Shown here in pieces: positions 1-42,227 of a DNA stretch of 64,000 bases. A program made the position numbers and the translations under genes. The number at the start of each line of letters is the position of its first letter. The first letter of the stretch is position 1. Below the pieces are notes generated by a model. It did no database searches. It saw nothing but the letters and a program-made list of their open reading frames with translations, and was not told the DNA's origin. This DNA is from an uncultured Pseudomonadota bacterium (GTDB lineage: Bacteria > UBA10199 > JADFYH01), in NCBI GenBank assembly GCA_964414715.1, contig CAYPXN010000040.1, positions 5,988 to 69,987 on the forward strand. Direction: 5' to 3'.

Positions 1-8
1 TCACCACG

Positions 9-3000
9 ATGGTGATGAAAGGTAAAGCAGGTGTTTACGAAGGAGCTCGAGCCCGTTTTTTTGGTTTCATGGTGGAAACGGGTCCTGGTTGGCGATTGGA
101 CGGTTACTTGGGCGGCACTGAAAATAATATTTCAGATCAAGATCTCGCAAAAAGTACTCTCAAGCTTGCCCAGTGGTTTGTAAAAGAAGGAAAATACTCC
201 ACCGCTGCTCAAATCGCCTCTCTTATCAGCGAAGATATCTATGTAGGGGCTGAAGCAAAAAAACTCATCGAAGAAGATATTCCCTCAAGCGCGAAGTGGG
301 ACACGATACTCAACGCAGGTCACGGGCTTTTATATTTTACTCCTCTTGCTCCCGCCGTGGCTTTTGCCGATGTTTCTTCTCCTGCAACCATTGGTGAAGA
401 AAGTGGTGATACTCATGCATTGAATGCCTTAAAGGGAGTGGCTATGAATGCTGCCACCACGATAGTCCCCTTTGGCATTGCTCGCTGGGCAAGAGTGGGA
501 GCTGAAGCTGCATTCGTTGCGCGTGCTGCGACTTTAATTGAAAATCCCGCTGCTTTCAAAATTGCTGGATTTCTAGTCGGAACCACTACTGAAGCAGGAG
601 CCTTTACTCTTTCAAACATGACACTTCAATCCATGATGACGGGAAGTACCGCTAATTGGAATATCAAAAATTTTGGAAAAGAATTTGGATCCATGATGGT
701 GACTTTTGTTCTCTTGCATGGCGTGAGCATGAGAATGGAAAAAGTTGGAAAAAGTTTAGAAAAAGCAGGCGCTCTCGATACTTCTATTGGAAAAACTACT
801 TTTGGAGCGGCTAGCTGGGGAGTACGTGTCGGATCTTTTACAGCCACTGAATATATTAATGAAGCTATTGGCTTGAAAGAGCATGAAAATGTTCCTTTAT
901 GGATGCGTTTGCTGAGCTCGGCCATCACCGATGCACAAATGGTCAAAGCCGGAAAAGTGGTAGACATCCTGAGTGGTGGAAAAATTTCTAAAACAGAACA
1001 GGCAACACAATTAAAATACAAAGCTCATGAAATATTACCGACTTTGAAAAAAATAGGTTTCGATTTTAATCCTAATCCTGACCCCGGTAGTGGCCCTGGC
1101 TCTGGAAACATAATTCATACTGACTTTTCTTCACCCTTTCCTCAAAGTCCTGCGGAACTTGTGTTAAGGATCCTTGTTCAGAACTCTGTTCAAACAGGTC
1201 GTTTGGAAACGCCTCCTCAAGATACCATTGATCGTATTCATCAAATAATTAGCGATGGAAAAACAGACCTCCACTCTCCGGAAGGGCAAGCAAAGCTGGC
1301 GCTTTGGGTAACTTATGCACTGAGAGCAGGCGAGGGAGGAAAAAGTTTAACGGGTCCTGAGTTGGAACGCAATTATCATGAGCTCGATACAGGCACAAAA
1401 ACCTTTATTCAACAATGTGGTATAGACGGCGACTCGGCCTTGGGAAAACAGATCCAGGTCGAGTTGATGAATTTTGTTCTCAGCCGAAACATTTCTCCTA
1501 CCGAGTTCGGAAAATATTTGGAACATACTTCTGATATTTATAACACTTTGCACATGATTGCCTCTTCGCTTACCGGAAAGCCTGCGAGCTCTACTCCGGA
1601 AGGTCAAAAAATTATGGCGGGACTCATGCTGAGTCTTGCCCGCTCCGGAGACAATGCAGATCATATCCACGAATTGTGCGAACGATTAAGTGATGTCGAG
1701 CATGACTTAAGGTCTACGAATTTTTTCACACTGTCCGAAGCAAACACGCCGGATCAAAAACTTGCCCTCTTGTACTGGGCGGTGGAAAATGAAGTGTCGC
1801 AGGGAGATCTTGTTAAAATTGCAAATAACATCGAAGCTGGAAAATTGCATTTCGCATGGGAAAACGGGGATGTAAACTTAAGAAAGGGAGAAGGGGTTTT
1901 TGAACTTCGACCTGAAAACATTATTCATCCTGTGAGCGATGAACAAATTATTTCAGAAACACCCATTCCAGATACGGACAAGAAAGTCGCGGACGTTCAA
2001 GCCCCTCCCGTAGATGAAGCGTCTCAACGTGTGGCAGCCAGAGGAAAAGTCCAGGCTTCCCTGGTAAAGTCTGAACCCGTTGAAATATTGAATCGCTTGG
2101 CGAAGTCTTTTGGTATTTCAAAAAATTCGAGCTTTGTTCATGATCTTTCAGGCACAACAGCAGCTCGACATATTGACCCGGCAAAAGTAGAAAGCATTCT
2201 TAAAAAACTCAATCAAGCCCTTCAGGCAACAAAAATAAATCAGCGCTCCTTTAAAAATCCTGAGGCTGTTCGTGAGGAACTTTTCAAGAGAGTGGTGGAG
2301 GGAAAAATTACTGAACCCTTTGCCCAAATGCTTTTCGAAAAATGTAAAAGCCGAGAAATTAGTCCTGAAGATTTGGATTTTGTTTTGGGTTTTGATGCGA
2401 ATGGACGCAACATAGCTCTATTGGAAGCTGTTCCTGAATTGGGAGTCCAGTCCGCTTGGTTGGAAAAACTGGTCGAAAATCCTAAAGCATTTTACGACAA
2501 AGTAAAACGAGTCACCAATACGGACGGACGCCTTTTTAACCTTTTTAATATCATTTCCAAAGGACGAGAACTTAGCAAAGATGAAAAGGCAATTTTGATT
2601 CACAACCTCGAAGAAGCGGGCTTCAAAATTCCTGCTGCAGACAAAGAACAATATTTCGACGGACTGATTAGCATTATCAAAAATTACAATTCCTTAGGGC
2701 TAGAGGAGGTTTTTTCCTCTTCGGATCTTATCACACTCATGGCGGCACTTCACATGCACGGCGCAACCCCCGTCATTTCTGAGGCAAAAATGAAAGCTCT
2801 GGAGGATATTCCAGATCTTCTCCTTCGAAGACAAGCTTTCTTAAAAGTAATTTTAGAAGGCAATATGTCTGGATCGTCAACATTTGATCCTGTACGAGTA
2901 GCAGAAGGAGTAATGAATAATAAATGGGCTAAATCTGTTTTTTTAGATTTTGAGAATTCTTCTCATACACAAGCAAGACATCTTGCAGAAGGCAGCACGC

Positions 3001-6000
3001 CTTTTGCAAAAGCAGCCAAAGATTTCTTGGCAGGTAAAATTTCCGTTAATCAATACCATGAAACCCAGGATGCAATTGCAAAGCAAATGGTAAAAGATCA
3101 TCGTGTTGCGGGGGCTAAAGTTCTCTCATTTTTAAATATTTTAAGTTCGGATCCCTCTCTTAATATCAGTAAAAAACCACCTCCAACTGCTCGAATGAAA
3201 TCTATCACTGATATCGTGCCTAAAATAATACGACGGGGTTATACTCATGATGCAGCTCTTACTGATATTGCCGCTACTCGTGTGATTGTAAAATCAAATT
3301 CCGATGTAGAAGCAGTCATCGCAAAAATTCAGGAAAAATATCCCATTCGTGAGACTTATACCAAAGAGGGAGAAATAGAACTGGATCTCATGGATCCTGC
3401 TGAAGTGAGAGCACGAGGGCTGCCTGAAGTGGAAAATGAAGTTTGGTTGGATGTAAAGCCTGACAAAGACGCCATTCATCGTTTAGTCGAAGGTCATCCA
3501 GCAAGTGGTTATCGAGCTTTGCATGTCGTGGTTGAAATAGACGGAAAGCCCGTAGAAATCCAAATCAAAACCGAAGCGATGAATGAATGGGGAGAGATCG
3601 AACATAAACTCGTTTATAAAAACAAGAATCTTCCCGATGCAGTTATGGAACCCATCAAGGCATTCCGTAAAGCAGCGGCTGATTATTTAAGCAAGGCAGA
3701 ACATCTCAAACCGGGTGAAACTTTGGGAGAAATGCCCAAAGCCCCAGATATCCCGGACAACATTCCCAATGTAGCTGAAATTCGCAAGCAATTGGAAGCC
3801 ATGACAGCGCTAATGGAAAAATACACACCGGCTGTCGATGAATCACAAATCCCGATAGGCACGGGCTACACACAGGATGTAGGACGCAATTCTCCTCAGG
3901 AAATCCAAGAGATTGGACAAAGAGGAATGGATTTTGCTCAAGCTCTTCGGGAAGGAAACGAAAAAGACATTCCGCCTGCCTGGATCAGAAATATCTCTTG
4001 GACAAGTGAATATGGAAAACCTTTCTCTCGTCAGGCAGCTCTTCTTGCACAAACAGCAGCCCGAAACATTCCAATTTTAGTTCAAGAAATCCGTGCAAAA
4101 GAAATTTCTTATAGAAAAACAGGATCCACAGAAGAAAAAGGAAGAATCCTGAATCAACTGGACGATCTGTATATTCGCCTTGATCATCACAGTCAGGACC
4201 TGGAAAGATGGAAAAGGGTTTCTGATGGCGTAACACAATACGCAAAATCAATTTCAGACTTCTCCTTTCCTTATGTTCGTGATTCGGTAAGACACAGTGT
4301 GCGAAAAAATATGATGGAAACTGGTCGAAATAGGGAACACATGCCTGAACCGCCCTTGTCTCCGGTTTCCTTCGATATAGAAAGACCTGACTGGAGTGAA
4401 AACCCTGATCTGCGGGGAAATTTGATGGAAGCAGGTTTTGCCGGGCGAGATGTTTCATTGAATGACTACTCCATTCACTTTACAGTTTCGACTGAAGCGG
4501 AGCGTCGTAGTCTTTTGAACTTTATCGAACAAAACCCTGAAAGTAGAACTTATCGTATTTCTTCCGAAAGCCCTCATGTACTTCGCGTCCGCACCCCGCA
4601 GGGAAAAGATTTTCTGCTTGAAGTTCATCTTGCAAGCGAACGAAGAAATGCGAATACAGTCCCTGCAGAAGAAGATCTCCTCTTGGCTGCGGAGGCAAAA
4701 CCAAAACCAAAAGCCGTAGAACATGTTGAGTCCGAAGCGATGGTAAATCACGACGGGGGAGAGGGAGATGTAAGCAAAAATGTTTCTCCCAACAGATCTG
4801 AAGAAGCTACCAATCCTGGCATCAGAAGAAGAGGGCTTCCGGATGGCAGCTCCGCTCTCGTTTTGGGGATTCTCGCCGGAGGAGCAGCACTTCTTTACGG
4901 TTCAGATGCTCATGCAGCTGTTCATGAAGCAGGGAAAGCGATTTCAGATCCCGGCCACCTGATTTTTGAAGGTCTAAAATATGCAGCAGGATTCATTCCT
5001 GTTTTGGGAATGTTTTTTGGAAAAGGAGGGGGTGATAAAAAAAGTGTCGCACCAAGCATGGAGGTAAAACCCAATCCTCAGGATTCCGTCATTCTAATCG
5101 GCAGGAAGTACGGGCACTTTACAAATGATACTTCTGTATCCGGAACTCACTGCACACTGTATAAAACTTCTACAGGACAATGGGTTTTGCAAGATGGCGA
5201 CGCACAAGCAGGTCAGATCAAAGCAAGTAAAAATGGGGTTAAAATTTTGGATGCCGCAGGTAATGAAACGCCTCTTCCCAGTGGAGGAAGAACTTTTTTG
5301 CAAGACGGACAAGTGATTCTTGTGGGAAAATCAGCATTCATCTTTCGATCTCCGGATGCTCCTTCTCATCTCCAACAAGCTGTTCCCGGAGTTCCGCATA
5401 ATGCTGCCGCACGGGCTAGCGTAAAGCCTGCGCGCCAAAGCCCTGTGCCTGCAATCGATTTTACACAATATCCCTCTCTGACAATCCCTTCGACTTCGAA
5501 TCCTCGTGAAGAATTTATCATTGGAAATGCTGTGTATGAAGCTGGGGGTGGACAGGTGAATCATCTCACGGAGGACGGAGACCCCCATGCACGAGTTTAT
5601 TTTTCACTTCGAACCAACATTCAGGGCAAGTGGTTTGTTTATGATGGGAGAGTTGGGGGAGCTGAAAAAAGTCCTTATGGTATCGAAGTCATGATTTCGT
5701 CCGGAGAACGAAAAAGGGTTAATGGTTTTTCAGAACTTAATCCTGGAGATTTGATTATCTACAAAACACAGCGGGGAGAGCTTGTATATCGTTTTGATGG
5801 CCAAACTTCAGAAACTCCTTCCAGACCCGTAAGCGCAAACCCGGCAGACAAGGCACCAGAACCACCTCGCGTTTTGGCAGTATATGATGTTTCCAAATTT
5901 GCAGATTTAAGCGAAAACAACCCGAACTGGAAAAACAAACAGGGAGCTATTCCTGGGGTCGCTTTTGCCTCTCATGAAGGTGTGGGATACAAAGATCACA

Positions 6001-8948
6001 ACGAAGATCGTTATTACGCGATGAATTTGGGAGATGGTCGTACCATTACTTTTGCAATCGATGGTATGGGAGGGCAGGTGGGAGCAGAAAGGGCTGCCGA
6101 GATTATTCGTTCTTCCCTCGAAAGAGCCTTTGCGGAAGGTGCCAACATTCATGAAGCCATCGATGTAGCGAAGCGCACTCTAAGGGCTGTCAATCAACCC
6201 ATTGTCGATAACTTTGTTGCAAAAGGTAAAAAAGCTTATGAAGCAGATCCTCACTTACCAGGAGCGGTAGCTGTAGGGGTAAGCACAAAGGCCATTGAAG
6301 GTGGAAAATATGAAGCAGAATTTGTCAGCATTGGAGATGCAGAAGCGATTGTCATTCGACCTTCAGCCGATGGACGTTCAGCTCCCACCGTTCCTTTTTA
6401 TACCTCTAGACCTTCTGCCATGAATCTGCTCCTGCCCGATCGTAAAACTCCCACCCTTCAAGATGGCTCAGGTCGCAGACAAAGAAACTATACACTCGTG
6501 GAACGCCTCAACCCGATTGCAAACATCGTGGCTGAAGGACTGGGTCTTTCTTCTTCTGATATTCACTCTGATAAACAGGTATTGGAAAAAGGAGATATTA
6601 TCATTTCGGGTTCCGATGGATTTTTTGAAAACTTTGGCAGCTTTGATGAAATTGCAAAAGTCGTTCAGGCAAGTGGACAAAAAACTCCCCAGGGAATTCG
6701 GGATGCCTTGATGCGGGAAGCTCTTTTGCGTCAACAATTATTGAAAATGAGACAAAGTGGAGAAGTTCTTGAACTTACACACGAGAAATATGCTCTCGCT
6801 TATCAAACACTATTCCAACAGCAAGCCCCTGCAGGATGGCGTGGAATGTATGAATCCTCTCCCTCTCAACGTTTTGTTTTGGATAATAATGGCAATGTGG
6901 GAAGATGGGAAGACGTTGATCCCGCAAGTAAAACACTCAAAGAGCTCAACAATGTCCCACTGGCGATCACACACTTCAAAAGGGATAATACGACAGTGGG
7001 AGTTCAAATCTTGGGAGACAGCACTCCTCCTGTGCCTGAAGCCAAACCTGTTAAAGTAAGTCCTCCTCCACAAGAAGCACCCGTTGCAAAAGCTCCTGTG
7101 GGCGCAAAATTTCCTGATCCCGTTGCTCCAAGAGCAGGCAATGCCTATCATGTAGATTCGAATCCCACGGTCATCATGCCTGCACTTCGTCCCGAAAAAA
7201 TTCCTTGGCAACAAGTCGTAGGCAGCCCTTATCATTCGGTCATTTTAGGAAGACCTGCCAAGCAGGCTGGAGCCTCAAACCCCGCCAATCTTTTTCCTGT
7301 CGATGACCAGGCCATCGGCAGACGTCACGCTGAAATTGTAGTTGGGGCAGATGGCACGCGTTGGTTAAGAGATCTCAGTTATCAGGGAAGCTCGAAGGGA
7401 GAAAATTATGGAACTTGGGTTGCAGAACAGAACGCCTGGAGAAAACTGGCACCTGGAGAAAATTACCCATTAAAGGCAGGACAATCTTTCGCGCTGGGAA
7501 GCGTGATTGAAGAAGGAATGTCTCTGCCTTCGACAGGTGTAGGTCTTCCCAGCAAAAAATATAACCTCGATAACAGCATCGTTTATATATTGGGAACGGA
7601 TGGAAACACCTTGTTTAGCAATTCCCGTCCAACATCGAGAGGAGATCTTCTTCAAAAACCCGCAGCAGATCCTGTTATCGCAGGACGTGCTGCAATACGT
7701 CCTGTTCCGGTGAAGGATCTTCCACACACACCCTTGAATTCTTCCGGAGTAAGAATAGAAGGGAAATTGTATGGTGAAACGCCGGTACAAAATTTTTCTC
7801 TCCAAAATGTTTCTCAAGATCCAAACAAACCCACTTGGATAAGTGTTGCTTTTGGCGATCAACCTCGCTTGATTCAAGGATTTCCGGATACTTCCGGACA
7901 ACCTTTGTTCAAGGTAACCACCCGCAATGGAAAATACTATCTGCAACTGAATGCGGATCTGAGTCATGATGGTTGGAGCATAGACGGAACTCGACGTAGT
8001 ATGGGACAACAAGTGCTGGAAGGTGGAAAAACTTATCAAATTAAGATTGGAACTCATGATTTTAGTTTAACCTTACCTACTGCAAGTCCTGTCGTGGCAG
8101 AAGCAGCTCCTCCGAATACACAAAACCTTCCCAGAGAATGGCCTCCCTTGGGCAGCGCTGATACTATTATAGGAAGGGCAGATGGAAGTATTGCCCCACT
8201 TCATGATGGAAGAGGAATAAACTTTATCGATGATAGCGAAATTCGTACTATTTTTAGCCGCGCTTCAGAAGCAAAGGGTCGAGCAGATGGTGTTCCCTTT
8301 TCTGTTGACCGCTTTGGTCGTCATGTAATTCAGCAACAGGGGCAACGAGGCTGTACCGCTGCTGCAAGCGGAATGCTTATCCTGGATCAAGGTGGAAACT
8401 TAAGTGGAAGAGAAGTAAGAACTAGAAATTTAGGGAATGAAAAAACTACCGCATCGGATATTTATTATGCAGGACTTATTCCTATTCTTCCTCGGGGTGT
8501 GCAAAATCTTGAAACAGCCATCCAAAAACACGGTTCTATGGTTGTAGGTATTGGTGGAGAAATTGGAGGACATGTTATTGTTGTCGATTATTACTCGGAA
8601 GCAGAAGGAGTCGCCAGAATTCGAGATCCTTTTCATGGCTGGAGCATTGAAACCACGACAGATGCATTGAAAAGTCGGGGGGCTCGTGTTGAAGTGGGCG
8701 CTCAAAATTTTCAAACATTTTTTGCAGGTACTGCGCTTGCTGGAGTGCGTAGCCACGAACAGCTCAAGGATCCTGTCGGACTACTGGAACAGTATCTTCA
8801 AAACAGGGGTCAATGGAACAGCAACAAAATTACTATTGATAAGTTGATTGATTATATCAGGGCTCGCAGTTTCGTCATGGATTCTTATAACGACTCCATG
8901 AAGGCAAAATTGGATACTGTTCTCAGAAAATACGCTTATCCCAACTAA
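9..8948 (+). CDS. Giant multidomain protein of at least 2979 aa, probably 5'-truncated by the window edge. Contains a RelA/SpoT-like nucleotidyltransferase domain, a hydrophobic hairpin, FHA x2, a PP2C phosphatase, FHA x2, and a C-terminal papain-like Cys/His region.
   Basis: Uninterrupted ORF of 8940 nt. The frame is also open in the 8 nt upstream of the first ATG, so the true start probably lies outside the window. Motifs read from the translation: DIAATRVIV...GYRALHVVVE...EIQIKTEAMNEWGEIEHKLVYK (Rel/SpoT synthetase signature); NEDRYY...FAIDGMGGQ...SGSDGF (PP2C); G-R / S-R-x-HA / NG-T FHA signatures (VILGRP...IGRRHAEIV...GSSKGENYGTWV). Confidence 0.85.
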   Translation: MVMKGKAGVYEGARARFFGFMVETGPGWRLDGYLGGTENNISDQDLAKSTLKLAQWFVKEGKYSTAAQIASLISEDIYVGAEAKKLIEEDIPSSAKWDTILNAGHGLLYFTPLAPAVAFADVSSPATIGEESGDTHALNALKGVAMNAATTIVPFGIARWARVGAEAAFVARAATLIENPAAFKIAGFLVGTTTEAGAFTLSNMTLQSMMTGSTANWNIKNFGKEFGSMMVTFVLLHGVSMRMEKVGKSLEKAGALDTSIGKTTFGAASWGVRVGSFTATEYINEAIGLKEHENVPLWMRLLSSAITDAQMVKAGKVVDILSGGKISKTEQATQLKYKAHEILPTLKKIGFDFNPNPDPGSGPGSGNIIHTDFSSPFPQSPAELVLRILVQNSVQTGRLETPPQDTIDRIHQIISDGKTDLHSPEGQAKLALWVTYALRAGEGGKSLTGPELERNYHELDTGTKTFIQQCGIDGDSALGKQIQVELMNFVLSRNISPTEFGKYLEHTSDIYNTLHMIASSLTGKPASSTPEGQKIMAGLMLSLARSGDNADHIHELCERLSDVEHDLRSTNFFTLSEANTPDQKLALLYWAVENEVSQGDLVKIANNIEAGKLHFAWENGDVNLRKGEGVFELRPENIIHPVSDEQIISETPIPDTDKKVADVQAPPVDEASQRVAARGKVQASLVKSEPVEILNRLAKSFGISKNSSFVHDLSGTTAARHIDPAKVESILKKLNQALQATKINQRSFKNPEAVREELFKRVVEGKITEPFAQMLFEKCKSREISPEDLDFVLGFDANGRNIALLEAVPELGVQSAWLEKLVENPKAFYDKVKRVTNTDGRLFNLFNIISKGRELSKDEKAILIHNLEEAGFKIPAADKEQYFDGLISIIKNYNSLGLEEVFSSSDLITLMAALHMHGATPVISEAKMKALEDIPDLLLRRQAFLKVILEGNMSGSSTFDPVRVAEGVMNNKWAKSVFLDFENSSHTQARHLAEGSTPFAKAAKDFLAGKISVNQYHETQDAIAKQMVKDHRVAGAKVLSFLNILSSDPSLNISKKPPPTARMKSITDIVPKIIRRGYTHDAALTDIAATRVIVKSNSDVEAVIAKIQEKYPIRETYTKEGEIELDLMDPAEVRARGLPEVENEVWLDVKPDKDAIHRLVEGHPASGYRALHVVVEIDGKPVEIQIKTEAMNEWGEIEHKLVYKNKNLPDAVMEPIKAFRKAAADYLSKAEHLKPGETLGEMPKAPDIPDNIPNVAEIRKQLEAMTALMEKYTPAVDESQIPIGTGYTQDVGRNSPQEIQEIGQRGMDFAQALREGNEKDIPPAWIRNISWTSEYGKPFSRQAALLAQTAARNIPILVQEIRAKEISYRKTGSTEEKGRILNQLDDLYIRLDHHSQDLERWKRVSDGVTQYAKSISDFSFPYVRDSVRHSVRKNMMETGRNREHMPEPPLSPVSFDIERPDWSENPDLRGNLMEAGFAGRDVSLNDYSIHFTVSTEAERRSLLNFIEQNPESRTYRISSESPHVLRVRTPQGKDFLLEVHLASERRNANTVPAEEDLLLAAEAKPKPKAVEHVESEAMVNHDGGEGDVSKNVSPNRSEEATNPGIRRRGLPDGSSALVLGILAGGAALLYGSDAHAAVHEAGKAISDPGHLIFEGLKYAAGFIPVLGMFFGKGGGDKKSVAPSMEVKPNPQDSVILIGRKYGHFTNDTSVSGTHCTLYKTSTGQWVLQDGDAQAGQIKASKNGVKILDAAGNETPLPSGGRTFLQDGQVILVGKSAFIFRSPDAPSHLQQAVPGVPHNAAARASVKPARQSPVPAIDFTQYPSLTIPSTSNPREEFIIGNAVYEAGGGQVNHLTEDGDPHARVYFSLRTNIQGKWFVYDGRVGGAEKSPYGIEVMISSGERKRVNGFSELNPGDLIIYKTQRGELVYRFDGQTSETPSRPVSANPADKAPEPPRVLAVYDVSKFADLSENNPNWKNKQGAIPGVAFASHEGVGYKDHNEDRYYAMNLGDGRTITFAIDGMGGQVGAERAAEIIRSSLERAFAEGANIHEAIDVAKRTLRAVNQPIVDNFVAKGKKAYEADPHLPGAVAVGVSTKAIEGGKYEAEFVSIGDAEAIVIRPSADGRSAPTVPFYTSRPSAMNLLLPDRKTPTLQDGSGRRQRNYTLVERLNPIANIVAEGLGLSSSDIHSDKQVLEKGDIIISGSDGFFENFGSFDEIAKVVQASGQKTPQGIRDALMREALLRQQLLKMRQSGEVLELTHEKYALAYQTLFQQQAPAGWRGMYESSPSQRFVLDNNGNVGRWEDVDPASKTLKELNNVPLAITHFKRDNTTVGVQILGDSTPPVPEAKPVKVSPPPQEAPVAKAPVGAKFPDPVAPRAGNAYHVDSNPTVIMPALRPEKIPWQQVVGSPYHSVILGRPAKQAGASNPANLFPVDDQAIGRRHAEIVVGADGTRWLRDLSYQGSSKGENYGTWVAEQNAWRKLAPGENYPLKAGQSFALGSVIEEGMSLPSTGVGLPSKKYNLDNSIVYILGTDGNTLFSNSRPTSRGDLLQKPAADPVIAGRAAIRPVPVKDLPHTPLNSSGVRIEGKLYGETPVQNFSLQNVSQDPNKPTWISVAFGDQPRLIQGFPDTSGQPLFKVTTRNGKYYLQLNADLSHDGWSIDGTRRSMGQQVLEGGKTYQIKIGTHDFSLTLPTASPVVAEAAPPNTQNLPREWPPLGSADTIIGRADGSIAPLHDGRGINFIDDSEIRTIFSRASEAKGRADGVPFSVDRFGRHVIQQQGQRGCTAAASGMLILDQGGNLSGREVRTRNLGNEKTTASDIYYAGLIPILPRGVQNLETAIQKHGSMVVGIGGEIGGHVIVVDYYSEAEGVARIRDPFHGWSIETTTDALKSRGARVEVGAQNFQTFFAGTALAGVRSHEQLKDPVGLLEQYLQNRGQWNSNKITIDKLIDYIRARSFVMDSYNDSMKAKLDTVLRKYAYPN

Positions 8949-9018: not shown

Positions 9019-11157
9019 CTAAGTCCTCCCCAAAATCCTCTTGTTCACTCCCAAATAATAACTTCTGTCTGCACGGTTGCGCAAAAACATGGGAAGATTT
9101 TCTCCAATTCTTGCTGCATCTCTCCATGTGCTTAATTCATAATGGGTCATGGTCCAGCGTTCTTCTTCGAGATAAGCCATCATTTCAGAAACGATCCTGC
9201 TGTGTCGATCCAGTGAGTAAATGACAGGGTCTGCTCCAACCTCCATTTCATCGTAATTTCCCGTCCTGTGTTTCCAGTGCTCCCATTCATGAATCAGCGC
9301 CTGCAATCGCATGACCACTTCGTCTCGAGCACGAGAAATTCCTTCGTGGGTCTGCATGTTGGGCCGAGGAATATTTTTAATTACAATCAAATCCTCAATC
9401 TCTGTTCTGGGAACAAAAAAAGCCACTCCACAGTCACTGGGGGCATGCAGGGAAGAAGCCATTTCCTGAAACTCTGCTTCATCCACAATAAGAATTTGAA
9501 AAGCATGGGAATGCCATGCCCTTTTCAAACTTTCTATATGAGGAGTAGTATTTGCTTCCAGAAGTAAAATCATTTCTTCTTCTGTAAAAGGTCTTCCTGA
9601 TTCCAGAAATGCAAAGACATTATCAAGCACTCTTCTTTTTGCTTCTTCCACCTTATGTGGATTTTTTAGAGATTCTTCCACGTCCATCATCACCGAAACC
9701 ACTTTTCTGGCCAGACGCTCATCATGGATAAAAGCAGTGGCCGAGCTTCCATTCATGAGATGAGCCACCAACTGGGGATCTATTCCATTGTTTACCATCC
9801 AAGCAATGGAGCCCAGTTTATCTTCCGAATGATCTCCTTCCGTGATTTCTTTCAGCTTGTAAGGAGAATCTTCCACTGCAAAAATTTGGCAGGCTCGTCG
9901 GAACACCAACATTCCTGCTGGACTTCGAAGGGCATAGGCGAGAACTTTATAAATATCCTTGGCCTCGTAACGTCCTCCCCTGAGCGCCTGAACAACAAGA
10001 GTAGAGTTTTTGATAAAGTCACGAAGATCCTGAAGGCTCAAACGATTCGAATAAGAAAACTCATCAAACAGCTTGTAAATTTCTGCCCGAGTGATTCCTT
10101 GCCGCATGGCCTCCAAAATTTTTCCCAAACGTTCTTGACGAAGCTGGGGAGCTTCGGAAATCCCTCGACTCAACAACTCATGCAACAACATGCGGTCAAA
10201 ACCACCTGTAGGCGTTTTATCTGCTTCGGTCGTAAAAACTTCCTGTATCCCTCGTAACACATGAAGTTGTTCCAGTGTTCCCGCTTGTGGCATGCGAGAA
10301 CAAATCTCAAGCAAGCTTGTATAATGACCCATTTTTTCAAAGGGAGTTTCCAGAGCGGTTTCAATAATTTCTTGCACATAATTGTCACGATAGGGGAGAT
10401 CGGGAAAACGCGGTTTCCATGTATCTAACCAATGTTGACGCTCGGCAGGATCCTTGAAATCAAACTCGTCTCGAGGGCTTGCAAAAACTTTCAGACCTCT
10501 TTGCATCGTTTCTTCAAAAACAAAGTCTTGCTTTGAAAGTTCCGGGCCTTGAACAAGACTCTCCATGGCTTTTGTTTCACGAGCTGATATTCCCCCGGTA
10601 ACCAGTTCTCCCAAACTCATTCCCACACCCATTGCCGTATTGGTCATTTCGGCGTGGAGATATTGCTGAGTGAGAGATCCTTCAGGAGCAAGAGTCAGGT
10701 GTAGGGCATAGCTGAGATGTTCTCCCGCCACCATTCCCGTATCCTGGATAAAATGATTGAGGAACAAATGGGAGCTGCCCAATTTCCCAAAAAGTTTCAG
10801 ATTGGCAAAGTTCAGGTAAGTGCCCAGAAATTCTTCGCGCGAAAAAACAGAGGAGAGGGAAGCGTTGTTTAAAAGAATTTGACTTCCGCGATAGGCACTC
10901 ACTTCTGTAAAAAGACCCACCAAAGGAGCCAAGACTTTGCCGGCAAGAGGAGCAATGGCATCATTGGCCAAAACAGCCGCTTTTCCAAAGCGATAAGCGA
11001 GCCCGCCTGCCATCATGGAAAGAGTGTTTCTCCAATTGCACGCCTCTTCCATGAACTGGTGATCCAGGGCATCCATTTCCCTTTGTTGGGAAGTCAAGTT
11101 GTGGGAGGAAGGCAAGGATGAGCTCACGCTCATTCTGCGATCCAAGAGGTTCATCAT
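9019..11157 (-). CDS. Hypothetical 712-aa protein with a C-terminal HExxH (HEWEH) zinc-metallopeptidase-like motif. Convergent with the giant gene. No signal peptide.
   Basis: A 2.1-kb ORF cannot be chance. The motif LIHEWEHWKH lies near the C-terminus. The stop codon is TAG. No family recognised by eye. Confidence 0.7.
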   Translation of the reverse strand: MMNLLDRRMSVSSSLPSSHNLTSQQREMDALDHQFMEEACNWRNTLSMMAGGLAYRFGKAAVLANDAIAPLAGKVLAPLVGLFTEVSAYRGSQILLNNASLSSVFSREEFLGTYLNFANLKLFGKLGSSHLFLNHFIQDTGMVAGEHLSYALHLTLAPEGSLTQQYLHAEMTNTAMGVGMSLGELVTGGISARETKAMESLVQGPELSKQDFVFEETMQRGLKVFASPRDEFDFKDPAERQHWLDTWKPRFPDLPYRDNYVQEIIETALETPFEKMGHYTSLLEICSRMPQAGTLEQLHVLRGIQEVFTTEADKTPTGGFDRMLLHELLSRGISEAPQLRQERLGKILEAMRQGITRAEIYKLFDEFSYSNRLSLQDLRDFIKNSTLVVQALRGGRYEAKDIYKVLAYALRSPAGMLVFRRACQIFAVEDSPYKLKEITEGDHSEDKLGSIAWMVNNGIDPQLVAHLMNGSSATAFIHDERLARKVVSVMMDVEESLKNPHKVEEAKRRVLDNVFAFLESGRPFTEEEMILLLEANTTPHIESLKRAWHSHAFQILIVDEAEFQEMASSLHAPSDCGVAFFVPRTEIEDLIVIKNIPRPNMQTHEGISRARDEVVMRLQALIHEWEHWKHRTGNYDEMEVGADPVIYSLDRHSRIVSEMMAYLEEERWTMTHYELSTWRDAARIGENLPMFLRNRADRSYYLGVNKRILGRT

Positions 11158-13506: not shown

Positions 13507-14070
13507 CTATTCGCGTGGACAGCAGGCTAGAAAAATAGTTATGCTAACATTTGTTGTTGCATTTGGAGTAAGCACACTACAATACCTACCTCTAATAATA
13601 GCCTCCGAATCAGGAATGCCCCCAAAACACAATGCACCAGGAACAATAAAACTTTTTATTGCTGAACTACATGGACCCTCTAGAAACCAAGTAGGAATTG
13701 CACCATTGGTAGAAATACTACAACCTCCACTTACAGCCACTTGACCAGAGCCGCAATCTAATTCACCTGTAACACCTTGCCTGGCAGTGAAACTTCTGTG
13801 CACTTCCCTACAGCCACTCCAAAGAATCCCAGGCCCCCTCGGCCCAGCAGGCCCTTGCAAACCCATCGGACCTATTGGTCCCTGAGGCCCCTGAATTCCT
13901 TGGGGCCCACGCTCTCCCGCTCTCCCTGGAGGGCCTTGAGGACCCGGATCTCCCGTGAAGCCTCTAGGGCCTTCACTTCCATTTTCTCCTCGCGGACCTC
14001 TTTCTCCAGTACAGCTTTCTAATAACAAGCCTGCCAAAGCAACGGCTCCAATAGCAACAATGGGCAGCAT
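13507..14070 (-). CDS. Collagen-like triple-helix repeat protein (about 25 G-X-Y triplets) with an N-terminal hydrophobic anchor or signal and a Cys-rich C-terminal globular domain.
   Basis: Translation [70 protein letters not shown] 7 nt upstream of the second ATG ([10 protein letters not shown]...). The ORF track starts 11 codons earlier. Confidence 0.75.
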
Positions 14071-14191
14071 AAATACCTCCTTGTTTGGTATCCATGTGCC
14101 CACCTAAAGTTTTACTTTCTTAAATTTTAACTCGATAAAATACAAGAAAAGTTGTTAATATTTCTCAAGCGAACACAACACGGAGCGTTAT

Positions 14192-15720: not shown

Positions 15721-16214
15721 ATGGCCGCACCTTGTTCCAAAATTTTGTCAAAATCGGCATGAAAATTTTTAAAAGCTTCTCCAACGCTTGTGTATAAAAA
15801 CAAAACAACTTGTGTTGCATCAAGTTTGCGACACCAAAGCTCCTGCTGCAATCCATCGGGAGTTTCTACACGAATCATTTGCCAATCTTTTCCAAAAAGA
15901 TTTTTAGATTGCGCAGAAGTAATGCGAGCATTGGGATAAGTTTTTTTATCGTTTAACAAATATCCTCGAATTTGGTTCAGGTAGGTTTTGGCATCCATTG
16001 GGATATCATCTGTACGTCCGGAAATGGTTAGGGCTTTTCCCAGCTTAATGGACTCCATCATGAGAAATTCTTTATCCGACATATTGGGGTTATCTTTTTT
16101 CCACTGAGCACTGGGCACCTGAAATTTTTTTCCCAAATCCTGGACGGAAATGTCTGCCCGAAGAGCAGGGGAGAGAAAAAACAAGAAGAGAAAGAAGGAT
16201 AATGTTTTTTTCAT
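15717..16214 (-). CDS. Periplasmic hypothetical protein with a signal peptide, co-transcribed with bcp and the nudix gene.
   Basis: MKKTLSFFLFLFFLSPALRA signal. 4-nt overlaps with both neighbouring genes. Confidence 0.5.
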   Translation of the reverse strand: MKKTLSFFLFLFFLSPALRADISVQDLGKKFQVPSAQWKKDNPNMSDKEFLMMESIKLGKALTISGRTDDIPMDAKTYLNQIRGYLLNDKKTYPNARITSAQSKNLFGKDWQMIRVETPDGLQQELWCRKLDATQVVLFLYTSVGEAFKNFHADFDKILEQGAAI

Positions 16215-16600
16215 GAGAGGTTTCCTTGTGAAAGATCTTCAAGGAGTTGAAGATCAGCGGCCGGAAATTCATAATTTTTTAATTCTTCAGGACTAGCCCA
16301 GGCAATTCCGGCACAATCAATTGCCTTAGGTTCTCCTGAAACAATCTCACAAAGAAAAAAATAAAGGTGCACACTCACTTCGGGATAATCATGTTGAACT
16401 TCACGATAGAGGCGGGTGGGCTTGATTTGAAGATCAATTTCTTCCTGGCATTCCCGAATAATGCAAGCTTCGGGACTTTCATTCACTTCGAGTTTCCCTC
16501 CAGGAAATTCCCAGAGATGTCCCAAATGAGAATGTTTATGACGACGGGTAATGAGATATTTTCCCTCTTTCTGGATGATGGCTGCTGCAACCTTTAGCAT
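16211..16600 (-). CDS. NUDIX hydrolase (MutT-like). The ORF track extends to 16663, but the likely start is the internal Met of MLKVAAAIIQ.
   Basis: Nudix box GKWEFPGGKLEVNESPEACIIRECQEEIDL. Confidence 0.8.
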   Translation of the reverse strand: MLKVAAAIIQKEGKYLITRRHKHSHLGHLWEFPGGKLEVNESPEACIIRECQEEIDLQIKPTRLYREVQHDYPEVSVHLYFFLCEIVSGEPKAIDCAGIAWASPEELKNYEFPAADLQLLEDLSQGNLS

Positions 16601-16682
16601 TTGAATATCATCCAAAAAGAAAAGAAAAAACCCAAGGAAAATCTTAAGAAAATGAATCTTCACTTGGGTTTTTAATTTTTTA

Positions 16683-27050: not shown

Positions 27051-27707
27051 ATGGCTATAAGCACTGAACTTCTGAAACTACTTGTTTGCCCCAAGTGCAA
27101 AAAGGCTCTTCAGTATCAATCTAAAGAAGATGCTTTGCTATGTTCTTCTTGTTCACTTTTGTACCCTATACAGGAAGGCGTTCCTGTGATGAGCGAAGAA
27201 GAAGCTTTTGAAATCGGAAAGGGAGGGGAACTTATGACCAAAGCTACAAAGTCACCGGTAGCTATTTTCAAAATCAAAGAGGGTCCCAACCAAGGTGAGT
27301 CTCTTAAGCTCCCTCTCGATTCTTGTCGAGCCATTGGAAGAAGCATCGACGATGTGAACAAAACCCAAATCTTCAACATGGAGCCTATTGTTCCACTGGA
27401 TGACTTTACCAAAAAACTCGTCTTGAATTATCTTTCCAAGAAAAAGGGTAAAGCAGCTCCTGCAAAAGCAAACACTGAAAATGCCTTTGGAAGTTTTAAA
27501 AGACTTCCAGACTTGGTCCTCAACGATCCAGCCATTTCCAGACTTCATGCCATGCTTTTTTATGATGAGAGTGGGGCGGGAATATTAGATTTGGTTTCCA
27601 GAAATGGTACTTTTGTAAATGGTCAAGAAGTGGAGTCTCGTACTTTAAAAGAAGGGGACCTCATTGAAATTGGTGCCACTAAAATTGCATTTTCAATGTC
27701 GAACTAG
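27051..27707 (+). CDS. Trm112-like zinc-ribbon domain fused to an FHA domain.
   Basis: N-terminus LLKLLVCPKCKKALQY...LLCSSCSLLYPIQEGVPVM (Trm112/UPF0434). C-terminus AIGRS...ISRLHAML...SRNGTFVNGQ (canonical FHA motifs). Confidence 0.7.
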   Translation: MAISTELLKLLVCPKCKKALQYQSKEDALLCSSCSLLYPIQEGVPVMSEEEAFEIGKGGELMTKATKSPVAIFKIKEGPNQGESLKLPLDSCRAIGRSIDDVNKTQIFNMEPIVPLDDFTKKLVLNYLSKKKGKAAPAKANTENAFGSFKRLPDLVLNDPAISRLHAMLFYDESGAGILDLVSRNGTFVNGQEVESRTLKEGDLIEIGATKIAFSMSN

Positions 27708-29223: not shown

Positions 29224-31383
29224 ATGGTCACTCTCGAAAAGATCATTCAGAACATCAAATCCTACAACCCCCAAGGGGATTTTTCTCTCATTCAAAAAGC
29301 AGGGGATTTTGCCAGTAAGGTTCATAAAGGCCAAGAAAGGCAATCCGGAGAACCTTATATTATTCATCCTCTCGAAGTTGCTGAAATTCTTGTTCAAATG
29401 AAACTCGATGTTCCGTCTATTGTTGCAGCACTGCTTCACGATACGATAGAAGATACTTCTGCAACTCTCGACGAAATCAAAAAAGAATTCGGACCTGAAA
29501 TTGCCCACTTGGTAGATGGCGTAACCAAACTCAGCAAAATTCAATTTTCGAGCGCACAAGAAAAACAGGCCGAAAATTTTCGCAAAATGATCATGGCTAT
29601 GGCGAAAGACATCCGGGTTATTCTGATCAAGCTTGCGGATCGCCTCAACAACATGAGAACTCTGAAACACCTCTCCGAAGAAAGACAACAAAACATTGCC
29701 CGCGAAACCATGGATATCTATGCTCCTTTAGCAAACCGTTTGGGAATCCAGTGGATGAAGGTTGAACTCGAGGAGTTATCTTTCAAATATCTTAAACCTG
29801 AAGCCTATAAAGATATTGATGAAAAAATGAGGCAGGTTAAAAAAGAATCTGCTCCTTATATTGAGAAAGTGCTCCAGGAAGTTTCAAGCAAGCTGAATGA
29901 GTATAAAGTTCCCCATCAAATTTATGGTCGCCTCAAACATTATTTTAGTATTTACAGAAAAATGGCGGCCCAAAACATTTCTTTTGAACAAGTAAATGAC
30001 TTGATTGCTTTCCGAATTATCGTGGACAACATTACACAGTGTTATACTGCCCTAGGAATTATTCACGAACTTTGGACCCCCATCCCCGGGCGATTCAAGG
30101 ATTACATTGCCATGCCCAAGGCAAACAACTATCAATCACTCCATACCACTGTAGTATGCATGGAAGGAGAGCGTGCAGAATTCCAGATTCGAACGAAAGA
30201 AATGAATGAAGTGGCGGAAAAAGGGATCGCTGCACACTGGAACTACAAAGAAAATGGTTCGATCGACGACAAAGATCAGCAAAAATTTCAGTGGGTACAG
30301 GAACTGCTAAAATGGCAAAACGAACTCAAAGACCCGGCCGAATTTCTCGATACCGTCAAACTTGATTTATTTGCCACAGATGTTTATGTTTTTACACCCA
30401 ATGGTGATGTGAAAGAACTTCCTCACGGAGCCACTCCTATTGATTTTGCCTATTCCATTCACTCTGACGTGGGAAATCGCTGTGTGGGTGCAAAAGTAAA
30501 TGAAAAGATTGTCCCTCTTAATTATCGCTTACGAAGCGGTGACACCATAGAAATTCTCACAAGTGCCCATCACAAACCCTCCAAAGACTGGCTTAAATTC
30601 GCCGTCACTTCCCGGGCAAAATCCAGGATTCGCCAAGTAATTCAACACGAACAACGAGAAAAAAGTATTATCCTGGGAAAAGAGTTAATTGAAAAGGAAT
30701 TCGAAAAATTCAAACTTTCCCCCTCAAAATACATGAAAGGGGAAGAACTCAAGCACGCCATTCAGGAAATGGGCTATCAAAATCTTGAAACCTTACAAAT
30801 GCACGTGGGTTATGGAAAAATTTCTCCCTTACAATTTATTTCAAAACTCGTTCCACGTGAACTTCTTGCAGAAAAAGCTTCAGAAGAAACAAAAGCCGAA
30901 AGTACTCTTTCCAGAATTTTCAAAAAGGTAAAAGAACGTGGTAAGAGCATTGTAAAAGTAGGTGGCTACGACGACATCATGGTATCTTTGGGGCGTTGCT
31001 GCTCCCCTCTACCTGGAGATCCTATCATAGGATTTATTACGCGAGGCAGGGGAGTTGTGGTTCACATTATGGACTGTGCCAAGGTTCTTTCCACAGACCC
31101 CGAACGAAGAGTGGAGGTTGCTTGGGACAAACACAGTGAAGCTTCTCATCAGGCAAAACTGAAAATTGTAAGTGCAGACAGACCTGGCCTCTTAGCATCC
31201 ATGAGTAAAACTATTGCCAATGAAGGGGTCAATATCTCTCAGGCTTCCATACGAACCACGAGTGACGAAAAAGCAGTAAATATCTTTGAAGTGGAAATCA
31301 AAAACATCTCCCAATTAAAAGGAGTATTACGGGCCTTGGAAAAATTGGGAGGAGTAATCAGCGTGGAGAGAATAAGGAATTAA
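29224..31383 (+). CDS. spoT: Bifunctional (p)ppGpp synthetase/hydrolase, Rel/SpoT long RSH.
   Basis: HD hydrolase domain (HPLEVAEIL..HDTIED), synthetase domain, and TGS plus ACT C-terminal domains. Length 719 aa. Confidence 0.9.
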   Translation: MVTLEKIIQNIKSYNPQGDFSLIQKAGDFASKVHKGQERQSGEPYIIHPLEVAEILVQMKLDVPSIVAALLHDTIEDTSATLDEIKKEFGPEIAHLVDGVTKLSKIQFSSAQEKQAENFRKMIMAMAKDIRVILIKLADRLNNMRTLKHLSEERQQNIARETMDIYAPLANRLGIQWMKVELEELSFKYLKPEAYKDIDEKMRQVKKESAPYIEKVLQEVSSKLNEYKVPHQIYGRLKHYFSIYRKMAAQNISFEQVNDLIAFRIIVDNITQCYTALGIIHELWTPIPGRFKDYIAMPKANNYQSLHTTVVCMEGERAEFQIRTKEMNEVAEKGIAAHWNYKENGSIDDKDQQKFQWVQELLKWQNELKDPAEFLDTVKLDLFATDVYVFTPNGDVKELPHGATPIDFAYSIHSDVGNRCVGAKVNEKIVPLNYRLRSGDTIEILTSAHHKPSKDWLKFAVTSRAKSRIRQVIQHEQREKSIILGKELIEKEFEKFKLSPSKYMKGEELKHAIQEMGYQNLETLQMHVGYGKISPLQFISKLVPRELLAEKASEETKAESTLSRIFKKVKERGKSIVKVGGYDDIMVSLGRCCSPLPGDPIIGFITRGRGVVVHIMDCAKVLSTDPERRVEVAWDKHSEASHQAKLKIVSADRPGLLASMSKTIANEGVNISQASIRTTSDEKAVNIFEVEIKNISQLKGVLRALEKLGGVISVERIRN

Positions 31384-42099: not shown

Positions 42100-42227
42100 C
42101 ATTCCTAAAATAAGTGATGAGACCCTAATCAATAATCTAAAAAACAATAGACAGCAACCCCTTCTTTGCCCTTAAAATAGTGGAATTCCGAGGAGCGGGA
42201 CTTTTTTTCACACTTCAGGGGAGGCTT

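Follow-up and report, generated by a model that had tools for sequence, protein, structure and literature searches.

The window analyzed, a stretch of 64,000 nucleotides, opens inside a giant gene spanning positions 1..8948 of the plus strand, which the window truncates at the 5' end, as no stop codon lies upstream. Counted from an internal ATG at window position 9, the open reading frame (ORF) measures 2979 codons, and the frame is open back to nucleotide 3. Residue numbers of the giant protein are all relative to this ATG. In contig L039 of the same assembly the ORF is at least 264 codons longer upstream, and is still open there; the full protein is at least 3243 aa long. The ortholog P0003 carries about 970 extra N-terminal residues, and the window protein aligns to it from residue 972 (BLASTP). 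The true length is probably about 4000 aa. A RelA/SpoT synthetase domain (RSD) resides in the middle of the ORF, as a sequence-only reading of the same DNA had noticed. Its assignment of the domain to residues 1063–1208 holds for the location, not for the numbering, which starts at the internal ATG of an ORF having no upstream stop.

Modules of the giant protein and neighboring genes

The region following the RSD (aa 1231–1631) has no Pfam match at E≤10. A hydrophobic helical hairpin (4848..5021, plus strand; aa 1614–1671), marked by an A-H-A-A motif after the first helix, was identified by a Kyte-Doolittle scan. The helix, A-x-A, helix pattern is found once or twice in at least 9 paralogs. 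The hairpin is presumed to be a membrane anchor having both flanks on one side of the membrane, as hydropathy suggests. Pfam counts two FHA stretches (E=4.6e-10), the coordinates of the second not being printed. The first FHA domain (5085..5354, plus strand) has its best Pfam stretch at aa 1706–1773; the second FHA-like domain is placed at 7230..7514 (plus strand; aa 2408–2502) from the reading of the translation. A PP2C-type Ser/Thr phosphatase module (5955..7016, plus strand; aa ~1983–2336) is denoted by sub-threshold matches to Pfam PP2C_2 and SpoIIE and to NCBIfam Stp1. Nearly all members of the protein family described below have this module, which scores above threshold in relatives.

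The ORF ends with a variable domain (8100..8945, plus strand), classified from its homologs as a C39-like papain-fold cysteine peptidase. The domain gave no direct Pfam match (E≤10), and only chance matches in a PDB sequence search. Homologs are stand-alone proteins of 270–430 aa, four of them with precomputed Peptidase_C39 matches, and the candidate catalytic residues Q2776, C2782, H2855 and D2873 are invariant in their alignment (A2). No counterpart was found in P0003 or in other giants. The C-terminal domain differs between orthologs, as in polymorphic toxins, an observation counting against a signaling role.

The convergent gene downstream (9019..11157, minus strand) encodes a 712-aa protein which has no Pfam family and features a HEWEH motif. 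Its counterpart in L007 (15369–17903, minus strand; 29% over 777 aa, E=9e-83, tblastn) directly follows a 5111-aa giant ORF, and the pairing is thus kept beside a distant paralog. The three downstream genes have no Pfam match at E≤10, and no small ORF on the same strand lies downstream of the giant gene. Antitoxin, immunity, SAH, HD or pZFD functions were not detected in the giant protein or in the downstream genes, nor secretion-system genes within the 64-kb window. The chromosomal surroundings are housekeeping. Horizontal acquisition was not retained, given this context and a gene GC content (0.42–0.47) near that of the window (~0.41). PADLOC returned only a weak, partial match of the RSD module to the candidate PDC-S33, which was not taken for a defense system.

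A housekeeping bifunctional long RSH (Rel/SpoT) is encoded at 29224..31383 (plus strand), in a yicC-gmk-spoT arrangement. It features HD_4 (3.4e-56) and RelA_SpoT (1.3e-41) domains, in addition to TGS, AH-RIS and ACT, as well as the motifs HDTIEDT, RFKD and EFQIRT. The RSD of the giant protein is therefore an additional copy, as had been proposed. The HMM of the RSD clade does not detect the SpoT of the window at E≤1. The long RSH could hydrolyze (p)ppGpp made by the giant protein.

The synthetase domain and its active site

The catalytic core of the RSD (SYNTH; 3192..3629, plus strand; aa 1062–1207) matches Pfam RelA_SpoT PF04607 at E=4.9e-19, with 69.1 bits against a GA cut-off of 27, over profile positions 2–112 of 113. 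The same stretch is matched by NCBIfam GTP diphosphokinase YjbM and spoT_relA. The sequence-only reading had set the domain at 3195–3632 (plus strand), and its translation is exact. The core is part of an extended module (2979..3830, plus strand; aa 991–1274), in which helices flank it on the N-terminal (HLAEGSTPFAKAAK...) and the C-terminal side. This module is 58–59% identical over ~290 aa to P0003, P0004 and P0005 (BLASTP); identity to relatives is 26–47% elsewhere in the giant protein, so that the RSD module is its best-conserved block. Alignment A1 has 20 invariant columns. The AF2 model (pLDDT 91.6) has two or three C-terminal helices after the core, and the domain shows the five-stranded beta-sheet/alpha-helix SYNTH fold. 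RSD modules are acidic (pI 5–6), with net charges of -5 to -13 in most members.

ATP-site and catalytic residues of SaRelP (PMC5794853) were used as reference. Nine of the ten are identical in the RSD, the exception being a Ser replaced by D1068. Of these nine, eight do not vary among 20 clade sequences (35–63% identity), and the ninth, the G-loop Tyr, is nearly invariant. The alignment check suggested earlier for the G-loop and the catalytic Asp/Glu thus finds Y1168, D1086 and E1183 kept. The donor-ATP phosphate-binding helix Syn1 (R1062-x-K1064-x3-D1068-x3-K1072-x2-R1075; 3192..3233, plus strand) was mapped by HMMER alignment on SaRelP R78, K80, S84, K88, R91 and FaRel2 S70. D1068 (nt 3210–3212) stands where the canonical Ser, which contacts the ATP alpha-phosphate (PMC5794853, PMC11782079), would be. 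Asp occupies this position in 19 of 22 clade members and in 1 of 98 other SAS. The donor-site residues R1062, K1064, K1072, R1075, R1091 and H1199 are present. The Ser-to-Asp change could alter donor, metal use or activity.

In Syn2 (D1086-I-A-A-T-R1091; 3264..3281, plus strand) the clade keeps D and R throughout; they correspond to SaRelP D107, a Mg2+ ligand, and R112, which stacks on the adenine (PMC5794853). An insertion of ~35 aa (3360..3464, plus strand; aa 1118–1152) separates strand beta2 (IRETY) from a K-D-A-I stretch, which takes the position of the RxKD motif upstream of the G-loop. The insertion, in which the AF2 model puts a short strand, a helix and a strand, is specific to the clade and found in most members, but is absent from P0028, P0053 and canonical SAS. 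In the G-loop, or Syn3 (H1163-P-A-S-G-Y1168-R1169-A-L-H1172; 3495..3524, plus strand), G, R and H are invariant; Y is found in 21 of 23 aligned sequences, and is His in P0020 and P0022. Y1168 is equivalent to SaRelP Y151 and BsRelQ Y116, the Tyr stacking on the acceptor base (PMC5794853). In Syn4/5 (E1183-I-Q1185-I-K-T...W1194-G-E-I-E-H1199-x3-Y-K; 3555..3620, plus strand) residues E, Q, T, W, H, Y and K are invariant, with SaRelP E174 (Mg2+ ligand) and H190 (ribose contact) as equivalents (PMC5794853). Both catalytic Mg2+-binding residues, Asp of Syn2 (D1086) and Glu of Syn4 (E1183), are invariant in the 20 clade sequences.

The conserved catalytic pattern recognized in the sequence-only reading is present, with four conservative deviations, all within natural variation: A stands for G in DIAATR, A for S in GYRALH, K for R in EIQIKT, and G for A in EWG. 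Of 126 other SAS-like representatives, 91 have GYRA and 19 have K at the EIQI(R)T position; R to Q/K is typical of the clade. Ala at the Syn2 G position is also found in the SpoT of the window (DLIAFR). Inactivity due to the G-to-A, S-to-A and R-to-K deviations was rejected, as such residues are frequent among ordinary RSH/SAS and occur in the window SpoT. The syn2/3/4 signatures ATR, AxH and IK are of the RSH/guanosine type, in contrast to the Apk2-type RYT, GxN and YH; such signatures separate the guanosine/RSH from the Apk (ppApp) type (PMC12226406). Acceptor specificity is not readable from the motifs, since syn-motif swaps failed to convert Apk2 (PMC12226406).

Relatives of the domain and of the giant protein

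Searched against PDB sequences, the profile scores RelQ/RelP at 4e-19 to 1e-15, FaRel2 at 1.7e-5, SaSAS at 0.73 and CapRel at 1.4. Judged from these profiles, the closest relatives of the RSD are RelQ/RelP (SAS1/SAS2 of Firmicutes; PDB 5DED, 6EWZ, 6FGK, 2BE3), whose donor-site and catalytic residues it largely shares, along with the G-loop Tyr and the Arg that follows. The His found five residues before the G-loop Tyr is shared with RelQ. RelQ/RelP form homotetramers via a C-terminal helical bundle, and RelQ has an allosteric cleft for pppGpp. In contrast to these stand-alone tetramers of ~210-aa subunits, the window RSD lies mid-protein in more than 3,200 aa, has Asp for the Ser contacting the ATP alpha-phosphate, a 35-aa insertion before the G-loop region and, in the model, fewer C-terminal helices; R of EIQIRT is K/Q in its clade. 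The giant ORF is multidomain with a SYNTH domain, as long RSHs (Rel/SpoT/RelA) are, and shares with them the K-D of RxKD and an Ala in place of the Syn2 G, but lacks their HD hydrolase, TGS, AH-RIS and ACT domains.

Different from toxSAS (FaRel, FaRel2, PhRel, PhRel2, CapRel), to which profile similarity is marginal, the window RSD is acidic rather than basic, lacks a bicistronic antitoxin, pZFD and SAH, and is part of a protein ~10–30 times larger. An RSD within a large multidomain protein is featured also by exported or toxin RSDs (Tas1/Apk1, Apk2-MuF, LXG-EAS, XopAD/SKWP), and XopAD-type effectors are, like the window protein, very large with internal RelA/SpoT-like domains (PMC3482391, PMC12691689). 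RelA/SpoT-like toxin domains were reported in 2012 from T3SS effectors of large size (XopAD, with two copies), from polymorphic toxins of the T7SS and from MuF fusions (PMC3482391); a description of ~600 exported alarmone synthetases followed in 2025 (PMC12691689). The claim that such a module inside a giant effector had not been described was therefore mistaken, XopAD, MuF, LXG and PAAR fusions being known (PMC3482391, PMC12691689). The window protein, in contrast to these, has no recognized trafficking domain, signal peptide or immunity gene, and its syn signatures are not of the Apk type. The exported RSD is a swappable C-terminal cassette, the window RSD a conserved core.

The RSD clade is rare, accounting for ~20 clusters in a set of 1.84 billion representatives. 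In almost every member the RSD lies mid-protein, the proteins being 2,300–7,300 aa long and from the candidate phylum UBA10199, and 2–3 paralogs coexist in 4 of 6 MAGs. A word-indexed homolog search returned two fragments only, and an exhaustive HMMER search was needed. Similarly, relatives on genome contigs were missed by a single-protein scan and found by a profile scan. TPR, RSD, hydrophobic hairpin, FHA and PP2C are common to the family, FHA and PP2C accompanying the RSD throughout; one paralog adds a kinase-like module. Pfam identifies only TPR, RSD, FHA, PP2C and kinase-like domains in the window protein, L004 (5909 aa, full-length), L007 (5111 aa), P0004 and P0009. Full-length members have no hydrophobic N-terminal signal; the N-terminus of the window protein itself is missing. 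The relative P0001/L002 stops ~70 aa past the RSD module, which is thus C-terminal there. Paralogs feature changing enzymatic modules, as multi-effector toxins do, and this also counts against a signaling role. Current annotation of the giant genes goes no further than 'FHA domain-containing' or 'hypothetical'. Literature searches for a giant protein joining an alarmone synthetase to FHA or PP2C, for FHA/PP2C control of an RSH domain, and on UBA10199 and toxSAS with FHA retrieved no precedent and no account of the megaprotein family.

Possible roles of the megaproteins

RSH enzymes are the central stress-signaling enzymes of bacteria, and are known as long ribosome-associated factors, small stand-alone synthetases and toxin cassettes. 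The RSD resembles a regular signal-producing enzyme more than it does a toxin. The account favored here, in which confidence falls just short of even, is that the RSD is an apparently active nucleotide 3'-pyrophosphokinase of the RelQ/RelP type, acting in cis and wired to phospho-threonine signaling. Most probably it would transfer pyrophosphate from ATP to GDP/GTP, yielding (p)ppGpp; G, rather than A or tRNA, is the putative acceptor. The domain is not a stand-alone SAS, but the conserved core of lineage-specific megaproteins (2,300–7,300 aa) of UBA10199-type bacteria. These have no N-terminal signal peptide, and the hydrophobic hairpins probably anchor them in the inner membrane, so that, with the topology predicted, all large domains would remain in the cytoplasm of the producer. 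TPR, RSD, FHA phospho-threonine readers, PP2C phosphatase and, in some paralogs, kinase-like modules are combined on one protein; alarmone synthesis at the membrane would be gated by Ser/Thr phosphorylation via FHA/PP2C, and the bifunctional Rel/SpoT of the genome would clear the product.

The toxSAS-like activity suggested by the sequence-only reading fits poorly with guanosine-type signatures and with a module which is acidic, internal and conserved rather than polymorphic, and for which antitoxin, immunity, SAH and trafficking domains were not found. Delivery to other cells nevertheless deserves weight, though it seems rather unlikely. The protein would then be a secreted multi-effector megaprotein like MARTX, XopAD or polymorphic toxins, its RSD flooding the target cell with (p)ppGpp or (p)ppApp, its hairpins serving translocation and its C39-like peptidase processing. 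RSDs are well known as toxin parts of large secreted proteins (PMC3482391, PMC12691689), and the C-terminal variation between orthologs (here a papain-fold peptidase with invariant Q/C/H/D), the diverse enzymatic modules of paralogs, the C-terminal RSD of P0001/L002 and the weak PDC-S33 match are in line with delivery. The internal RSD is, however, the most conserved part of the protein, FHA and PP2C are typically cytoplasmic signaling modules, and the nearest relatives, RelQ/RelP, are non-toxic. Neither the window protein nor full-length relatives showed PAAR, Rhs, LXG, MuF, XopAD, DUF4157 or Sec signals, and the locus lacks a same-strand immunity gene and SAH, as well as secretion-system genes over 64 kb.

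A tRNA 3'-CCA pyrophosphokinase like FaRel2, PhRel2 or CapRel, halting translation either in a cis-regulated switch for abortive infection or stress or in the role of a toxin, is very improbable, since tRNA-targeting toxSAS use basic patches (PMC11782079) and the modules here are acidic. The conserved N-terminal helical extension before the core recalls that anchoring tRNA in FaRel2 (PMC11782079), the clade-specific insertion adjoins the G-loop, and the CapRel RSD is held inactive in cis by a fused domain; but profile similarity to FaRel2 and CapRel is poor compared with RelQ, and no pZFD or antitoxin-like domain was detected. There is likewise a small chance that the RSD is non-catalytic or re-purposed, serving nucleotide binding, scaffolding, or another donor or chemistry, because the clade-wide Ser-to-Asp change would disturb binding of the ATP alpha-phosphate (PMC5794853, PMC11782079). 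Asp is nearly fixed in the clade and nearly absent elsewhere, and the R to Q/K change in EIQI(R)T is typical of the clade; K at this position is, however, found in ordinary SAS too, and an acidic residue beside the triphosphate can work via an extra metal ion. D1086, E1183, R/K1062/1064/1072/1075, R1091, H1199 and Q1185 are invariant, and Y1168 nearly so, over deep divergence, which is not expected of a pseudoenzyme.

More tentative than the signaling role itself is the full picture of inner-membrane-anchored UBA10199 megaproteins in which an alarmone-synthetase core, remodeled by the Ser-to-Asp change and endowed with a private insertion, is fused to FHA, PP2C and kinase-like parts. If true, it would be the first example in which (p)ppGpp-type synthesis and Ser/Thr phosphorylation are directly coupled on one giant scaffold; the A-x-A hairpin might in addition be processed internally in a signal-peptidase-like manner. 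The core of membrane-tethered megaproteins with FHA and PP2C would be a fourth context for RSH enzymes, joining alarmone signaling to eukaryote-like Ser/Thr phospho-signaling. Should the protein be a delivered effector instead, the repertoire of exported alarmone synthetases would gain a new architecture. The megaprotein family would open a way into the biology of this uncultured phylum, and what the Ser-to-Asp change seen across the clade at the ATP alpha-phosphate contact means for structure and function can be tested directly.

The synthetase domain and its active site

The stretch 3195–3632 (+), taken in the sequence-only reading for an embedded RelA/SpoT synthetase domain (RSD), translates exactly as quoted there, and lies in an unbroken frame listed as 9..8948 (2979 codons). 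A Pfam search with the window protein bears out the assignment: RelA_SpoT (PF04607) matches aa 1062–1207 (E=4.9e-19; 69 bits, cut-off 27) over 111 of 113 profile positions, and the NCBIfam models YjbM and spoT_relA match the same stretch. The earlier residue numbers hold for an ORF starting from the ATG at position 9, but the ORF is truncated. No stop codon precedes this ATG in the window, a second contig of this assembly (ENA ERZ27282891) carries the identical gene, 264 codons longer and still open, and the orthologue P0003 has ~970 additional N-terminal residues. The full-length protein probably measures ~4,000 aa. The phage-defence candidate model PDC-S33 of PADLOC weakly matches aa 1010–1110 (nt 3036–3338; E=2e-8, profile positions 18–119 of 349), covering the N-terminal half of the RSD module.

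For S. aureus RelP (SaRelP), ten ATP-site and catalytic residues are published (R78, K80, S84, K88, R91, D107, R112, Y151, E174, H190; PMC5794853). HMMER alignments map them to R1062, K1064, D1068, K1072, R1075, D1086, R1091, Y1168, E1183 and H1199, and 9 out of 10 are identical. At D1068 (window 3210–3212) Asp replaces the Ser known to contact the donor alpha-phosphate (S84 in SaRelP, S70 in FaRel2; PMC5794853, PMC11782079). Asp is found at this position in 19/22 members of the clade formed by sequences like the window RSD, against 1/98 other sequences like small alarmone synthetases (SAS), and the change extends to P0028 and P0053, giant proteins that are more distant. Little or no variation is seen in the clade at catalytic positions, despite pairwise identities to the window of 34–63%; the G-loop Tyr is changed to His in P0020 and P0022. 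An insertion of ~35 aa, specific to the clade, separates beta2 from a K-D-A-I stretch sitting at the RxKD position. The synthetase motif noted earlier is present, with four deviations (DIAATR, GYRALH, EIQIKT, EWG), which are not warning signs: the Ala at the G position of DIAATR occurs also in the SpoT encoded in the window, and GYRA and the K of EIQIKT are found in 91/126 and 19/126 other SAS-like representatives, respectively. That the RSD is a non-catalytic or re-purposed domain is quite improbable.

A clade of giant proteins

Searched exhaustively with HMMER, 1.84 billion representative proteins gave 557 matches to the RSD (23 at E<=1e-10, 11 at E<=1e-30). The top 20 are nearly all internal segments of proteins of 2,273–7,232 aa; a gap follows, and then ordinary SAS of 200–450 aa. 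When representative genomes of GTDB were scanned with a profile, the clade hosts proved to be MAGs labelled UBA10199 or "Deltaproteobacteria bacterium". Two to three paralogous loci reside in 4 of the 6 MAGs carrying the clade, one of which features ORFs of 5,909 and 3,654 aa. Since the lysyl-tRNA synthetase of the window is 74–79% identical to proteins of "Deltaproteobacteria bacterium" MAGs, and 68% to another LysRS, we infer that the window derives from the lineage of these clade hosts.

Pfam domains recur in family members in the order TPR, RSD, hydrophobic hairpin, FHA, PP2C; an APH/Pkinase/RIO-like module is present in addition in one paralogue. The RSD block (~290 aa, aa 988–1280) is the best-conserved part relative to three relatives (58–59% identity, against 26–47% elsewhere), and much of the family also shares the PP2C module and an N-terminal region. 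Public annotation reads just "FHA domain-containing protein" or "hypothetical protein". The hairpin (4848–5021 (+), aa 1614–1671) is made by two helices ~20–35 residues apart, with a signal-peptidase-like A-x-A motif right after the first (LLYGSDAHAAV in the window). This pattern is found once or twice in at least nine paralogous megaproteins, including P0003–P0006, P0012–P0014 and P0019. The hairpin may act as an internal signal-anchor or be a site of cleavage, splitting the RSD-bearing half from the FHA/PP2C half.

The last ~280 aa of the window protein (8100–8945, aa 2698–2979) form a C39-like papain-fold domain, which the closest orthologue and every other family member sampled lack. Its homologues stand alone, as proteins of 270–430 aa, one from a Parachlamydia MAG; four have precomputed Peptidase_C39 matches, and Q2776, C2782, H2855 and D2873 are invariant in the alignment. 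Judging from sequence, this looks like an active peptidase on a polymorphic C-terminus. Other paralogues, among them P0006, P0007, P0012, P0013 and P0020, feature, on reading their sequences, further enzyme-like segments, such as HDxGK-type HD domains, an adenosine-deaminase-like segment (P0012), and HExxH metallopeptidase-like (P0009, P0010, P0018) or transglutaminase-like (P0012, P0028) C-termini. Pfam bears out none of these segments, its one supporting match being the kinase-like one in L007, the locus of a 5111-aa paralogue. In L002 (1–729, JGI 3300045955), a 62% identical relative of the RSD module lies at the C-terminal end of an ORF running off the contig. The protein ends ~70 aa past the module, and so is devoid of the hairpin, FHA and PP2C that would follow; next to it, on the opposite strand, come an ORF of 45 aa and a gene for an HTH_20 protein.

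Toxin or signal generator

The RSD had been proposed as a candidate toxSAS-like (toxic SAS) activity, and six observations weigh against a toxSAS or an effector. Its nearest relatives are the non-toxic RelQ/RelP, and its syn2/3/4 motifs (ATR, AxH, IK) are nearer to guanosine-type enzymes (AVR, SxH, IR) than to the adenosine-type Apk2 (RYT, GxN, YH), although syn motifs alone are insufficient to set acceptor specificity (PMC12226406). Most members have an acidic module (pI 5–6), whereas tRNA-targeting toxSAS need basic patches (PMC11782079); that the RSD is a tRNA pyrophosphokinase is very improbable. The domain is internal and conserved, rather than a swappable C-terminal cassette. No trafficking domain or signal (PAAR, Rhs, LXG, MuF, XopAD, DUF4157, Sec signal), antitoxin-like or SAH gene, or secretion-system gene was found in the window, full-length relatives or neighbouring genes. 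Lastly, the hairpin, if membrane-spanning, would leave both flanks on one side, which should be the cytoplasm, the usual place of action of ATP, FHA and PP2C. An effector would in turn suit the polymorphic C-terminus, with its peptidase-like domain and invariant Q, C, H and D, the changing cast of enzymatic modules among paralogues, the relative stopping shortly after the RSD, and the published occurrence of toxic RSDs in secreted proteins of large size (PMC3482391, PMC12691689). Weighing the six points with these four, we tentatively favour a cis-acting alarmone synthetase within the giant protein, in which synthesis would be gated by phospho-threonine signalling; a delivered toxin seems unlikely.

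The notion that nucleotide-synthesising modules in giant effectors are undescribed fails in general: a catalogue of 2012 lists RelA/SpoT-like domains in XopAD-type T3SS effectors, in polymorphic toxins of the T7SS and in fusions with MuF (PMC3482391). A 2025 study, whose search was expressly ended before "large, multidomain RSH proteins" turned up, reported about 600 exported alarmone synthetases (PMC12691689). Our literature search found no description of the clade, in which UBA10199 megaproteins with FHA and PP2C have the RSD as their conserved core, and nothing on its Ser-to-Asp donor-site change or private insertion.

Neighbouring genes

The RSD is indeed extra to a housekeeping long RSH, as proposed. 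The gene at 29224–31383 is complete and encodes HD_4, RelA_SpoT, TGS, AH-RIS and ACT domains, with the hydrolase motif HDTIEDT and a bifunctional-type RFKD motif. Directly upstream of yicC-gmk-spoT, 27051–27707 (+) encodes a small Trm112p-like and FHA (Yop-YscD_cpl) protein, the second FHA module adjoining an RSH gene in the window.

The gene at 9019–11157 (-), downstream of the giant gene and convergent with it, encodes a 712-aa product with a HEWEH zincin-like motif, a hydrophobic N-terminal region and no Pfam family. A counterpart (29% over 777 aa, E=9e-83) occupies the same position at L007 15369–17903 (-), next to the distant 5111-aa paralogue, making this gene a candidate functional partner. 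NUDIX enzymes include some that break down (p)ppGpp; the window encodes a MutT-like NUDIX hydrolase (NUDIX_4) at 16211–16663 (-), ~7 kb away from the giant gene. The window also encodes a short protein featuring repeats of the collagen triple-helix type (13507–14103 (-); Pfam Collagen, 4.7e-9), and two patatin-like phospholipases (38529–39764 (-) and 42180–43484 (+)) less than 5 kb apart.
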